Source: a virus (lineage: Duplodnaviria; Heunggongvirae; Uroviricota; Caudoviricetes). Taken from it: DNA of 37,937 bases. The notes below the pieces were generated by a model that did not search any database, was not told where the DNA came from, and saw only the letters and a list, made by a program, of their open reading frames with translations. The stretch is taken from IMG/VR virus record IMGVR_UViG_2585427766_000015; one strand, given 5' to 3'. A program made the translations under genes and the position numbers. Of this stretch, positions 3,517 through 6,590 are shown piece after piece (positions within the stretch are counted from its first letter, which is position 1; every line of letters begins with the position of its first letter).

Positions 3517-4043
3517 TTGCGTAACTCCGATAACTCGTTAAAACGTTCCATAAACATCCCGTAGGCATGGCCCGGTGCCTGTGGAATCACTTTGAACATC
3601 TCTGTTGCCGGGATACCTTCCAGTACAGGCCAGAAAGAGCCATCATCAAGCCCGAGATCGCGGCGTTCGGTTGCCAGCATAATGAGATCGGCATATTTCA
3701 CTGGCGTGCTCATAACAGGAGGTAACCCGTATTTCTCACGGATTACGGCGTCTATTTTTTCTTCCATCCGTTTATAGTCAGGAAGAAGTCGTTTCAGTGG
3801 TGCGGGGATGTCCTGGCAATATGCTTCTGTTGCATCATGCATTAAAGCTTCAAAAGCAAATTCCTGCGGCACCAGCTGGCTGCAAAGCACCGCATGTTGG
3901 GCGACACTGTAGAAGTGTGAAAGATGTCCTGCAAAGCGACAGATATTTGAAAGGGAAACCGCGATATCGTTAATAACGATGTCGTCTTTATTTATCCTGT
4001 CATAATAAAAATGCTTCCCGGAAAAAGTTTTAATAAATGACAT
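3507..4043 (-). CDS. HD-domain phosphohydrolase (YfbR-like 5'-deoxynucleotidase family), about 178 aa
   Basis: His...HD motif (LMHDATEAY) and overall resemblance to HD hydrolases; the ATG at 4043 has a GGAG Shine-Dalgarno 6 nt upstream (the ORF track extends to a GTG at 4070). Confidence 0.7.
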   Translation of the reverse strand: MSFIKTFSGKHFYYDRINKDDIVINDIAVSLSNICRFAGHLSHFYSVAQHAVLCSQLVPQEFAFEALMHDATEAYCQDIPAPLKRLLPDYKRMEEKIDAVIREKYGLPPVMSTPVKYADLIMLATERRDLGLDDGSFWPVLEGIPATEMFKVIPQAPGHAYGMFMERFNELSELRKCA

Positions 4044-4587
4044 TTTGTTCTCCACGTATATGCGCTGCACCGCGCTGAATTCGGGTAAAAGGAAGCCCTC
4101 ACCGTCCGGCGATTATTGAGTCAATTACATTTCCATAAATGCCCCCGTAGGGGCGGTTAGTTTCTCCACAAAACAGAGAAGAACACCTGCGGTGGCAGCC
4201 GCCCGGATGGATTGGGTTATGAGCCCGTCGTCCGGTGATGCTCTTCTCTGTTTTGTAAAAAGGACGGTACCAGCCGGAAGCAAGGGTACAAACTGGTACC
4301 GCCAGGACTACACACAGCATAAAGTTGTGGTGCCGGGTGCCTCCCGGTGCCTGGCGAAGGTTGCACACCAGACGGGTGGGTATCCACAGAAGGTCGACTG
4401 TCAGCCTCAACCTTAACCCGCGTGCGCTGAGCCGCATTCACCACAACGCTAAGAATTCTCTCTGGTTGAAAATACTTAGCTGTTATGTGCCTGCTTTTAG
4501 CCACATCAGGCGAGGTGGACCTGGTTATTCCCCAACAACAAGGATTCGGTTAATCTGGTTATCCCCAACAACGCAAAAGGAAAAGAA

Positions 4588-5022
4588 ATGTCCGGTAATA
4601 TCTATACGCTGTACAAATCCCACTGTGAAAATGTTGGAAAGTATCGGGGCATTGAAATCAGTGGGGTAGTGTCATCAGTCGAAATAAGCAAAGTTGAATC
4701 AAGGGCAACATTACTTACTCTTCTGGACCTTGTCTTACATGAGCACCGGAAGAAATTCGGCACTCCCTATAATCAGTTGAATGGGAAAAAAGCTCTGGTT
4801 CACCTTATTCTGATGAAGCATCACTGGATGCCAAAACAGATTAATGAGATGAAATTTGATGAACTTCTTCTTTCAATTCAGGATGAACTCACGCTTGATA
4901 AAATAAGCGTAACCGCCCAGAAATTTTTAGATTATCGAGACTGGAGATCACAAATTCATCACTTTGATGATTTTGACGAAAATGAATGGGATCCTAATTT
5001 GTCTGCACAATATCTAAAGTAA
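4588..5022 (+). CDS. Hypothetical protein, 144 aa, AT-rich, antisense to the leftward early operon (moron)
   Basis: ATG with AAGGAAAAG upstream; tandem 19-bp direct repeats at 4521-4572; a + strand terminator at 5259-5283; no recognisable family. Confidence 0.6.
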   Translation: MSGNIYTLYKSHCENVGKYRGIEISGVVSSVEISKVESRATLLTLLDLVLHEHRKKFGTPYNQLNGKKALVHLILMKHHWMPKQINEMKFDELLLSIQDELTLDKISVTAQKFLDYRDWRSQIHHFDDFDENEWDPNLSAQYLK

Positions 5023-5200
5023 CATCCTGTGATAAAACCGTGATTTCCTGATCCAGTTTTTTTAAGGAGTCTATTGTTTCCTGTCGATAAGACAGCACTT
5101 CACGAAGCTGGTTTATAGCTGCCAGCTTCTTTGCCATCCACTCGTAAATTTCCTCATTTGTGTATCCGGGTGCGACGATTTTTGGTTCTGTTTTGTGCAT
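4994..5200 (-). CDS. Hypothetical small protein, 68 aa; first gene downstream of the putative PL-like promoter
   Basis: ATG at 5200 preceded by a strong GAGGAGGTG Shine-Dalgarno; predicted helical/coiled-coil; 3' end overlaps the convergent 4588-5022 ORF by 29 bp. Confidence 0.55.
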   Translation of the reverse strand: MHKTEPKIVAPGYTNEEIYEWMAKKLAAINQLREVLSYRQETIDSLKKLDQEITVLSQDVTLDIVQTN

Positions 5201-5258
5201 TTCACACCTCCTCAAGTTATCAGTTACTTGTTGATGGGGACCAGATTGTTAAAGAGCT

Positions 5259-5283: not shown

Positions 5284-5448
5284 TTGCTAACGAATCATCC
5301 TGGACTTCATATGCCCCAGGCGGCTACTTCGTGGGCGTCCTGCCTGTTCGTTTTTGACATTTACTGACTGCTTACGACACATGCACCGTGTTGCAACCAG
5401 ATTTTGTTGTAATCCTGTAGTTGGTCTGGAACAAAAGATAAAATTAAA

Positions 5449-5485
5449 TTGCGAGATATGCAAGTGATATTTGCGAGATATGCAA
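5449..5485. promoter_or_regulatory. OL-like tandem operators: two perfect copies of palindromic TTGCGAGATATGCAA, with a putative leftward promoter
   Basis: Copies at 5449-5463 and 5471-5485 match the TTGC-N7-GCAA site in the cI-cro intergenic region; minus-strand TTGCAT -35 and TATCTT -10-like elements overlap them. Confidence 0.5.
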
Positions 5486-5491
5486 ATTTAT

Positions 5492-5539: not shown

Positions 5540-6232
5540 TTAATTATGTCTCTTAAGGGTTTGCGACTGACTGATTAAGACCTTTCCAAAGACCATGAAT
5601 CGGTGTTCGTTTTCGCTAGTAATTCCCCATTCACGGTAAATCTGGTTATCAGAAATCACCAGCAGTTTGTCAGGAATCATTTGAAGTCTTTTAACGTATA
5701 TTTTGTCATCAAAACCAAAGACATATATACCATCACCATCAAACTGATTGATGCTGACATCAACGAAGATGAGATCTCCTGGCTCAATGGTTGGACACAT
5801 ACTGTCCCCACGAACGTTGATAACTTTGATGTGATTGGCTGGTCGTCCGCCGAACATTGATACAGCATTATCAGTTCTGTATTCGATGGCATGAATCACA
5901 TCAATGACATCACCGCCTTGGATAAGGCCATTTCCCGCACTGGCACTGATATCCAGCATTTCAATACGGAACACATCCTTCACCTGCGCAACATCCTCAT
6001 TATTACTGTTTTTATATACAGTATTACTTTTGTGGGCAGAGGTAAAGAGATCAGCAATATCAACACCTAAGCTCTTGGCAATATTACTCAGTGTTTGTTC
6101 GGTAAATTGTTTTTGCTTACCCGTTTCTAAGCGCGAGATGTTCGCCGCATCTACTCCTATCGCTTCAGCGAGATCGGCGATTTTCATGTTCTTCGCTTGG
6201 CGAAGTTGTCTGACTCGGTTTCCTATGTTCAT
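5540..6232 (-). CDS. CI-like prophage repressor (N-terminal HTH, C-terminal S24 LexA-like autopeptidase domain), 230 aa
   Basis: N-terminal HTH (KIADLAEAIGVDAANISRLETG); C-terminal GDSMCPTIEPGDLIFVD with downstream Lys (Ser-Lys dyad); divergent from a cro-like gene. Confidence 0.9.
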   Translation of the reverse strand: MNIGNRVRQLRQAKNMKIADLAEAIGVDAANISRLETGKQKQFTEQTLSNIAKSLGVDIADLFTSAHKSNTVYKNSNNEDVAQVKDVFRIEMLDISASAGNGLIQGGDVIDVIHAIEYRTDNAVSMFGGRPANHIKVINVRGDSMCPTIEPGDLIFVDVSINQFDGDGIYVFGFDDKIYVKRLQMIPDKLLVISDNQIYREWGITSENEHRFMVFGKVLISQSQTLKRHN

Positions 6233-6329
6233 GCGTTTATTACATTTCTTTATTGCGTGATAAGCAAATCAACTTGCGCAAAATAATTGCGTGAAATAAC
6301 ATGCATAACGCGCAATATTTGGAGGGCAT
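6233..6329. promoter_or_regulatory. Immunity switch region (OR-like operators and divergent promoters)
   Basis: Perfect operator TTGCGTGATAAGCAA at 6253-6267 plus degenerate TTGCG-containing copies (TTGCGCAA, ATTGCGTG, CGCGCAAT); GGAGGG Shine-Dalgarno before cro ATG. Confidence 0.6.
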
Positions 6330-6590
6330 ATGCAATCACCATTACGAAATGTGCGTAAGGCGCATGGTTTCACTTTGCAGCATGTTGCTGCGGGTGTTCA
6401 AGTCAATCCAGCGACGTTGAGTCGTATTGAGAGGCTGGAGCAGATTCCATCTATCGAGCTTGCAGAACGTTTAGCCAATTTTTTTAAGGGTGAAGTCAGC
6501 GAAATGCAGATTCTTTATCCGGCACGTTTTCAATCTAGCCAAAACCAGAATGGGTTTAAACCACAGGAACAGGAGGTGAACCGTGGGTAA
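6330..6590 (+). CDS. Cro-like HTH (XRE family) regulator, 86 aa
   Basis: HTH motif FTLQHVAAGVQVNPATLSRIE; position divergent from the repressor. Confidence 0.75.
   Translation: MQSPLRNVRKAHGFTLQHVAAGVQVNPATLSRIERLEQIPSIELAERLANFFKGEVSEMQILYPARFQSSQNQNGFKPQEQEVNRG

Follow-up and report, generated by a model that had tools for sequence, protein, structure and literature searches.

A minus-strand RNA locus beside yfdR in an SfII/SfIV/SfV-like prophage, probably built like the dicF locus, with a tRNA-like element past its terminator

The window analysed here is a stretch of 37,937 nucleotides from a virus of the Caudoviricetes (IMG/VR record IMGVR_UViG_2585427766_000015), an SfII/SfIV/SfV-like prophage that is kin to e14 and CPS-53 and adjoins a tRNA-Thr gene (1369-1444, ARAGORN). 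In it, an island of 360-450 bp separates yfdR from a gene of the ECs1072 family. The island is probably a non-coding RNA locus, read from the minus strand, that lies in or just inside the early-left operon and has the architecture of the Qin dicF locus. In the direction of transcription it is composed of a conserved upstream box, a hairpin, a multi-hairpin domain (A), a single-stranded linker, an intrinsic terminator, and a long-stemmed element (B). The structures, their strand, their relation to known RNA families, the synteny of the locus, and the lack of a conserved reading frame carry this conclusion. The locus is real and widespread, for the most part ordinary prophage small-RNA biology with a distinct seed and leader, and element B is apparently its undescribed part.

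The island stands out by composition and by folding. Its GC content is 0.525-0.575 over 4100-4500 and 0.41-0.46 in the flanks, as a first-pass annotation of the sequence had remarked, and the repeats described there are all present. The perfect 15-bp inverted repeat is formed by ACAAAACAGAGAAGA (4168-4182) and TCTTCTCTGTTTTGT (4242-4256) with a spacing of 59 nt; a repeat finder extends it to 25-nt arms (4168-4192 and 4232-4256) that are 84% complementary, and also recovers the perfect 9-bp pair CGGTACCAG (4265-4273) and CTGGTACCG (4293-4301). A GCCCC-CGTA-GGGGC hairpin is found at 4141-4154. The repeated GGTGCC motifs at 4333-4352 are both arms of a single hairpin, CCGGG-AGGCA-CCCGG, on the other strand. 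These features are far from chance, as the minus-strand RNA folds into structures much more stable than those of shuffled sequences. The 4160-4262 segment has a minus-strand folding energy of -51.2 kcal/mol, compared with -25.3 +/- 3.4 kcal/mol for the shuffles (z -7.7, 0/200), and the z values for the whole of 4130-4480 are -5.56 (minus strand) and -3.72 (plus strand). Structured non-coding RNA, one of several readings offered by the first-pass annotation, is therefore the right one, as covariation supports the stems and part of the region matches a known small-RNA covariance model. The strand, the terminator, and the RNA family had been missed.

Element B (4160-4262, minus strand) is a 25-bp stem with a Y-shaped tip, and the 15-bp repeat forms its core. 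In the stem (P1), 4261-4237 pairs with 4187-4163, and the U tract of the terminator is paired to GGAGA. The tip is made of an arm (P2, 4235-4203) that carries GGG-CUCAUAA-CCC at 4226-4214 and a variable hairpin (P3, 4202-4189). B was aligned in 46 distinct sequences from IMG/VR contigs, deposited phages, and one-genome-per-species contigs, covering Escherichia, Salmonella, Klebsiella, Citrobacter, Enterobacter, Kosakonia, Mixta, Trabulsiella, Buttiauxella, Leclercia, Phytobacter, and Pseudescherichia. Covariation was scored on a structure of 34 pairs specified by us, with 500 shuffles and slid partners as controls. In the alignment, 96.9% of the cells pair, and ten of the 34 pairs change on both sides, in 83 cells. 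None of the 500 shuffles reaches the paired percentage, the number of cells changed on both sides, or the covariation score; two of them reach ten pairs. Pairing in the slid-partner controls is 42-51%. P1 and P3 vary freely with compensation, P3 ranging from 14 to ~40 nt, while P2 is near-invariant. The total length of B is 102-131 nt, in steps that are not multiples of three.

The same alignment indicates the strand. Read on the opposite strand, the columns pair at 91.4% only, because G-U pairs are conserved on the minus strand alone (U-G in 45/46 sequences at one position, G-U at others). A covariance model of B gives the minus strand of the window 123.5 bits and the plus strand 41.1 bits, and finds B as a sole copy.

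The A domain (4324-4447, minus strand) has a multi-hairpin, STnc100-like core. It is closed by a 9-bp helix, GUUGUGGUG with CACCACAAC, and encloses several hairpins, including the invariant CCGGG-AGGCA-CCCGG. The first-pass annotation knew of no small-RNA match, but the Rfam model of STnc100 (RF02076) aligns over its full length (1-206) to 4477-4255 on the minus strand with a sub-cut-off score of 41.9 bits (E 1.5e-7) in a permissive scan, and the layout is that of the DicF locus. The core of the model also matches the homologous places in Salmonella phage ST64B (35 bits) and phage P1 (33 bits). The 5' motif of the STnc100 closing helix, UGGUGAAU, appears in the window as GUGGUGAAU from 4445, and the 22-nt motif CACCGGGAGGCACCCGGCACCA, common to canonical STnc100 and PasD-type loci, is exact; as in STnc100, the two motifs close the multi-hairpin core from its 5' and 3' sides. 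The window also has an intrinsic terminator 3' of the core, aligned to that of the model, and the prophage location of the family. The two motifs are common to dozens of prophage loci. Loci with the 22-mer fall into 37 sequence clusters, which include canonical STnc100, PasD-like hybrids, and the window variant, and several of them have a clear TTGACA/TAAATT promoter a few bases before UGGUGAAU and a terminator downstream. When nine relatives are folded to a consensus, the closing helix is preserved by two compensatory changes, U-A to C-G in phage P1 and G-C to A-U in phiES15, and an inner helix GCGGG/CCCGY is predicted. Compensatory double-sided changes are thus found in both A and B. The interiors of the A domain have been exchanged wholesale between phages, with the helices, the linker, the terminator, and B retained.

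Family members that share this core accumulate as separate RNAs of ~170-210 nt that end by termination. Eleven STnc100 copies are transcribed in strain EDL933, one of them confirmed by Northern blot (PMC5331693), and EcOnc27/sRNA103, the STnc100 RNA of enterohemorrhagic E. coli, is bound by Hfq (PMC12711010). PasD is Hfq-bound as well and has its seed in the same linker position (PMC8550237); it is also bound by CsrA, PasD2 being a major CsrA ligand. PasD and STnc100 have been linked by Zhu, Shabalina and Storz. The window shares with STnc100 and with PasD1 and PasD2 of enteropathogenic E. coli the prophage location, the (predicted) size of ~170-210 nt, and the order of core, linker, and terminator. 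It differs in the first hairpin and the interior, and in lying in the early-left operon, whereas those copies lie in the late region near stx, nanS, or lysis genes. In addition, no promoter of its own is seen for the window copy, and B was not seen in the late-region copies examined.

Upstream of A, the conserved box CCACCUCGCCUGAUGUGGCUAAAAGCAGGCACAUAAC (4483-4529, minus strand) marks the 5' edge of a mobile RNA module. Homology to the window starts at ~4529 in ~22 viral contigs irrespective of the upstream gene, and the box is also found in Cronobacter phage phiES15, Enterobacter, Kosakonia, and Mixta. Between the box and A, a hairpin GCUAAG...CUUAGC (4448-4482, minus strand; -10.6 kcal/mol, z -4.4) directly precedes the domain. 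A hairpin of other sequence holds this position in phiES15, P1, Qin, and others, which makes it, by analogy, a candidate 5' processing site. The tRNA-like T-arm sequences GGUUCGAUUCC and GGUCCGUUCAAUUCGGAC stand before the A domain in several Salmonella, Klebsiella, and Citrobacter phages, where the module sits amid tRNA genes or their remnants (loci L236 1080-1207, L239 900-995, and L011 1250-1325).

The 3' side of A is followed by the single-stranded linker UUUAUGCUGUGUGUAGUCCUGG (4302-4323, minus strand), which is unpaired in the minimum-free-energy fold. Part of it, UGCUGUGUGUAGUCUU, is conserved even between loci with different A interiors, in phages and prophages of Cronobacter, Klebsiella, Citrobacter, Buttiauxella, Enterobacter, and Salmonella. 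The linker is therefore a candidate seed, and probably the seed of a small RNA. The intrinsic terminator (4257-4303, minus strand) has a 13-bp stem (4303-4263) that holds the 9-bp repeat, followed by CUUUUU (4262-4257). Its fold has an energy of -20.5 kcal/mol (z -3.8). The homologous terminators have unrelated stem sequences, always with the U run after the stem; on the plus strand there is no U run at the terminator.

Linker and terminator are colinear with DicF, the linker specifically with its 5' part, and share with it UGGCGGUAYCAGUUU...CCGCCCUUUUU. The dicBF operon of Qin has the order ydfC, long hairpin, A domain, DicF, a hairpin with an STnc100-like domain, and dicB. In Qin (locus L341 2660-3110), the A-type domain before dicF is near-identical to the copies in Stx phages, and the 15-bp-stem hairpin after dicF encloses an STnc100-like domain (34.4 bits). 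Published work on Qin describes two DicF species, one of 190 nt whose 5' end is cut by RNase III and one of 53 nt produced by RNase E, with the 3' end set by termination. By our own arithmetic, 190 nt back from the 3' end of DicF is the 3' arm of the hairpin that precedes the A domain. An RNase III-dependent site lies 36 nt past dicF (Table S1 of PMC5371410), and this site falls in the hairpin that occupies the position of B. The list of RNase III sites of Gordon 2017 includes the dicF-dicB site and none at ymfH.

The likeness to the dicF locus of K-12 thus extends over the whole arrangement. Both loci lie in a repressor-controlled early operon next to the immunity region and have the same order of hairpin, A-type domain as structured leader, ~20-nt seed, terminator from UGGCGGUAYCAGUUU to CCGCCCUUUUU, long hairpin, and gene. 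They differ in the seed, which is UUUAUGCUGUGUGUAGUCCUGG in the window and UUUCUGGUGACGUUUGG in DicF, in the hairpin past the terminator, which has a tRNA-anticodon-arm-like Y tip in the window and an STnc100-like domain in Qin, and in the downstream gene, which is yfdR in the window and dicB in Qin. STnc100 as a long RNA and DicF appear to be two views, or neighbouring parts, of one locus type.

No reading frame is conserved in the island. The first-pass annotation had called it ORF-less, which holds only with a qualification, as both strands have open reading frames (ORFs) of 52-114 aa and PGAP annotates 4125-4444 (minus strand) as a frameshifted hypothetical protein; what stands is that no frame is kept among homologues. 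Stops occur in all six frames in 74 of the 84 distinct family segments, and the open frames of the remaining segments differ among themselves. Several phage records annotate hypothetical proteins at the island; searches of Pfam and NCBIfam with the island ORFs gave no match. On the plus strand, antisense to the RNA, a 74-aa ORF (4192-4416) matches phrog_3651 (E 8e-50, function unassigned), a family that probably consists of shadow ORFs lying over this conserved RNA. The sequence of the island in the window is identical in seven independent complete genomes, so that sequencing error is unlikely.

What is annotated in the K-12 prophage e14 as the gene ymfH ("putative protein YmfH", NC_000913.3 1201069-1201380; locus L340 5070-5381, minus strand) is the island in decayed form. 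The ORF starts, with GTG, at the first base pair of the A helix and spans seed, terminator, and B. The YmfH-like sequence in the window is split over three frames with 65-94% amino-acid identity per segment, and the split differs again in ST64B and Kp4866-6. A protein product, YmfH-like from the minus strand or phrog_3651 from the plus strand and perhaps read after correction of a frameshift, would account for the annotation in K-12, the PGAP call, the phrog_3651 match, and the hypothetical proteins of the phages. Against it stand the lack of a conserved frame, the stops in six frames, the length steps of B, the swapped interiors of A with helices kept, the compensatory changes, the lack of domain matches, and the identity in seven genomes. 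We regard it as very improbable and conclude from the frames, stops, length steps, and swapped interiors that ymfH, phrog_3651, and the hypothetical proteins are shadow ORFs over a conserved RNA.

The island sequence is present in 2777/5426 complete E. coli genomes (about half). Of its 3615 places in E. coli, 3605 are chromosomal, with a median of one per genome. In ST64B, phiNP, mEp460, phiES15, and e14, the locus follows the repressor gene and precedes the first early-left genes, which are sb37/yfdP-like, kil-gam, or xis-int. The module has sharp mosaic boundaries at ~4529, ~4305, and ~4155. In an Stx2c phage, a TTGACA-N18-TACATT promoter lies just a few bases before the start of the A domain. 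It is flanked by the palindrome found between cI and cro, indicating that it is the leftward promoter and operator (PL/OL); an intrinsic terminator lies between PL and the first early-left gene. In the window, the terminator of cI (5520-5503, minus strand) is followed by TTGCATATCTCGCAA, twice, at ~5435-5490, which resembles the TTGCG...CGCAA motifs between cI and cro (6232-6330). PL/OL of the window probably lies near 5435-5490, judging from these repeats, although the promoter scan calls no promoter there. A hand search for a promoter of the island itself turned up weak candidates at best (GAGAAT, 4460-4455), and these are not kept in ST64B.

P2 of element B resembles a tRNA. Its 14 nt CGGGCUCAUAACCC are identical to the anticodon stem-loop of a tRNA-Met gene, with three G-C pairs and a 7-nt CUCAUAA loop. 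This gene, which we take to be that of tRNA-fMet, the initiator tRNA, is found at 100% identity in 5426/5426 E. coli genomes, with a median of four copies. In contrast to E. coli tRNA-fMet, B of the window has no D arm, T arm, or acceptor stem. ARAGORN detects only the tRNA-Thr in the window, neither ARAGORN nor the Rfam models detect a tRNA gene or tmRNA at the island, and the Rfam tRNA model gives no match to B at E up to 10. In the late region of the Klebsiella phages Chronis and GZ7 (loci L005 and L006, 1503-1575), tRNA-Asn or tRNA-Arg is directly followed by an unannotated tRNA-like element. Its acceptor-like stem of 6 bp, GGCCUG/CAGGCC, ends in (A/G)CCA, its long arm bears the CUCAUAA loop, and a D arm is absent. 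The B model scores it at 36-39 bits; tRNA finders and the Rfam tRNA model miss it. In the ban operon of phage P1 (locus L007 1435-1640; P1 70005-70210, upl to tciA), an unannotated B-like hairpin, GGG-UUCAUAU-CCC, lies directly upstream of the STnc100-like A domain that scores 33 bits. This operon also holds a dicF-like region, three tRNA genes, and a weaker second match to the B model (L007 1151-1262). In e14, the loop has decayed to UUAAUAA and pairs have been lost from P2 and P3, with the long stem intact.

The identity of P2 and the relatives in the Klebsiella phages and P1 indicate that B is tRNA-related by origin or mimicry, yet not a tRNA. A remnant of an attachment site (attP) was considered and rejected, as the identity is confined to the anticodon arm and the 3' end of tRNA-Thr is not repeated elsewhere in the window. 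In the one-genome-per-species contigs, a degenerate anticodon-arm pattern matched outside Enterobacterales only by chance, in coding DNA, and never within a called tRNA. Literature searches by sequence strings and for tRNA-like decoys gave nothing relevant and no precedent, and the tRNA-like tip of B is apparently undescribed. That B and its relatives in the Klebsiella phages and P1 form a new class of phage tRNA-like RNA, by which a host factor that recognises the initiator arm is decoyed, sensed, or bound, is a speculative idea to which we give little credence.

Taken as a DicF-type locus, the island could work as follows. Transcription from PL or an unseen promoter would yield an RNA that mostly ends at the terminator. 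Leader A, seed, and terminator would together make a long form of ~190 nt (~4450 to 4257), and RNase E-type cleavage 3' of A would probably release a DicF-like short form of ~65 nt (~4323 to 4257). The short form would pair in trans with host messages via the seed UGCUGUGUGUAGUC, aided by a chaperone such as Hfq, as PasD and EcOnc27 are. Transcripts that read through would fold B, in which the U tract is positioned to pair with the conserved GGAGA in a 25-bp duplex. Cut by RNase III, this duplex would detach the small RNA from the yfdR-xis-int message, and the tip, a copy of the initiator-tRNA anticodon arm, probably binds some factor. The same logic is known from lambda tI/sib, where readthrough extends the terminator into a longer duplex; this duplex is an RNase III substrate, and the terminated and read-through RNAs have different fates. 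B differs from sib in lying upstream of int, not beyond it, in sequence, in its conserved tRNA-like tip, and in that its cleavage by RNase III is predicted. The first-pass suggestion of a processed 3' untranslated region is right in part: the RNA is probably excised from a polycistronic early transcript, but its position is that of a leader or intergenic RNA.

Several observations weigh against this reading. A scan of 3950-4700 for sigma-70 promoters finds none next to the RNA. The presumed PL lies ~1 kb upstream, past the ECs1072-family gene, which has the opposite orientation; leftward transcription must therefore traverse this gene antisense, and expression needs read-through or an unseen promoter. 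The hairpin at 4448-4482 has only ~12 bp, which is short for RNase III. As for the family relations, the STnc100 match remains under the curated gathering score of 47 and is missed by a scan at default thresholds, and blastn of PasD1 against the window gives chance matches only, so that identity with PasD was rejected. The DicF model (RF00039, cut-off 48 bits) scores a non-significant 15.7 bits in the window (E 1.7) and a sub-threshold 28.5 bits in the e14 copy (E 4.9e-4); Qin DicF itself scores 76.7 bits. No target can be predicted for the seed. Its duplex energy with the ftsZ leader is no better than that of shuffles, by a crude method in which the DicF positive control likewise fails, and seed-complementary 8-9-mers inside the phage are at chance level only. 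A plain RNase III site needs no invariant tRNA-like P2 arm, and the explanation of B is thus incomplete. Finally, expression as a discrete, Hfq-bound RNA is known from relatives, and that of the window RNA is predicted.

None of four other explanations, of which the protein-coding one has been dealt with above, is favoured by the data. One holds that the island acts in cis as an early-left leader, an attenuator or an antiterminator like put of HK022, that sets how much PL transcription reaches yfdR, xis, and int. The Stx2c phage would fit, with its A domain just after an operator-controlled promoter and a terminator before the first early-left gene, as would the recurrent order of repressor, RNA, and early-left genes in ST64B, phiES15, mEp460, and e14. 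No N-like protein is recognised between cI and the RNA, where the 68-aa product of 4997-5200 has a PHROG of unknown function as its sole match, and in HK022 the RNA alone suffices for antitermination (PMC9378689). The likeness to put consists in a structured RNA just past an early promoter of a lambdoid phage without a recognisable N, with terminators downstream. However, an efficient antiterminator before the terminator would prevent the discrete terminated RNAs of the family, in which relatives end at their own terminator. HK022 has both putL and putR, whereas the window has one copy and none downstream of PR, and the closed multi-hairpin domain is unlike the ~70-nt put fold of two stems in both fold and size. 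We consider this reading unlikely. If the terminator does act as an attenuator, this agrees with the DicF-type reading and does not oppose it.

The likeness of P2 to tRNA-fMet invites a reading in which B is the functional centre, an early-made mimic of the initiator anticodon arm that binds or decoys a host factor such as a VapC-type anticodon nuclease, MetRS, TilS, or the 30S P site. The anticodon loop of tRNA-fMet is where enteric VapC toxins cut, and early regions of phages often carry anti-defence functions. The near-invariance of P2 beside compensated change in the P1 stem and P3 fits such a mimic, the Klebsiella-phage relatives follow true tRNA genes and have an acceptor-like stem with (A/G)CCA, the B-like element of phage P1 has a UUCAUAU loop, and in defective e14 the loop has decayed beside an intact long stem. 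Against this reading, the tRNA tools do not recognise B, a literature search gave no precedent, and the position of B past the terminator would limit its dose; the likeness could also be a relic of descent from a phage tRNA gene. The idea is a doubtful one. Far less probable still is that the repeats act as DNA, in a cruciform, a protein-binding palindrome, a remnant of recombination or attachment, or a miniature inverted-repeat transposable element (MITE), two of which the first-pass annotation had offered. The long near-perfect inverted repeats, the sharp mosaic boundaries, and a tRNA-like sequence that could hint at an old attP core are what such a reading has for it. The minus-only G-U pairs, the better pairing on that strand, and the large asymmetry of the B-model score argue for RNA and do not support the binding site. 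The tRNA identity covers the anticodon arm and not the 3' half that attachment cores keep. The fixed syntenic position in the early-left operon, mostly chromosomal and with a median of one copy per carrying E. coli genome, is unlike that of a MITE.

The genes around the island are those of an early-left region. The integrase gene (1459-2622) is followed by a set of early-left genes on the minus strand, at the end of which yfdR (3507-4043/4070, minus strand) encodes an HD-domain 5'-deoxynucleotidase. Between B and the leader of yfdR, the small GC hairpin (GCCCC-UACG-GGGGC as minus-strand RNA, 4141-4154) has an energy of -12 kcal/mol and is shared with K-12 CPS-53, where it stands after yfdQ. 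Homology to CPS-53 begins exactly at this hairpin, indicating that ~4155 is a mosaic joint; elsewhere in the family another GC hairpin takes its place, for instance ACCUUGCAGGGU or GGCGGUGGCAGCCGCC. On the other side of the island are the ECs1072-family gene (4588-5022, plus strand; phrog_5286), a small gene (4994-5215, minus strand; phrog_1744), a LexA-type repressor gene (5540-6232, minus strand), and a cro-like gene (from 6330). The ECs1072-family gene, in reverse orientation between the presumed PL and the RNA module, overlaps the end of the 4994-5215 gene, and e14 has the same arrangement of opposed genes (ymfI and ymfJ). Between the module and the start of the ECs1072-family gene, the direct repeat GGTTAT(T/C)CCCAACAAC occurs twice, 33-34 bp apart, at 4514-4572; it is kept in Enterobacter and other E. 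coli prophages despite different neighbouring genes, and could serve to bind a regulator or belong to a divergent promoter region. A retron msr/msd was considered for the island and rejected, as there is no reverse transcriptase gene nearby, the neighbours being yfdR and the ECs1072-family gene.

About half of the complete E. coli genomes thus carry a sequence that annotation commonly treats as hypothetical proteins or pseudogenes, and in K-12 as ymfH. As the evidence is for an RNA locus, such annotations, and the phenotypes of ymfH clones, need to be read again. In a published screen, overexpression of ymfH triggers RcaT, the toxin of retron-Sen2, and this could be an effect of the RNA. The Rfam families STnc100 and DicF would be adjacent parts of one locus type with swappable leader, seed, terminator, and processing hairpin, which gives a simple picture of how prophage small RNAs diversify. 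Judged by its conservation over several enterobacterial genera, the seed UGCUGUGUGUAGUC defines a candidate DicF-like regulator. The tRNA-fMet-like tip of B belongs to a well-supported structured RNA. If B does represent a tRNA-like class, the early operon of many enterobacterial prophages would hold an RNA anti-defence device, with VapC-type tRNA-fMet nucleases or other tRNA-directed defences as candidate partners, and phenotypes credited to the "protein" YmfH, such as the triggering of the retron-Sen2 toxin, would be effects of an RNA.

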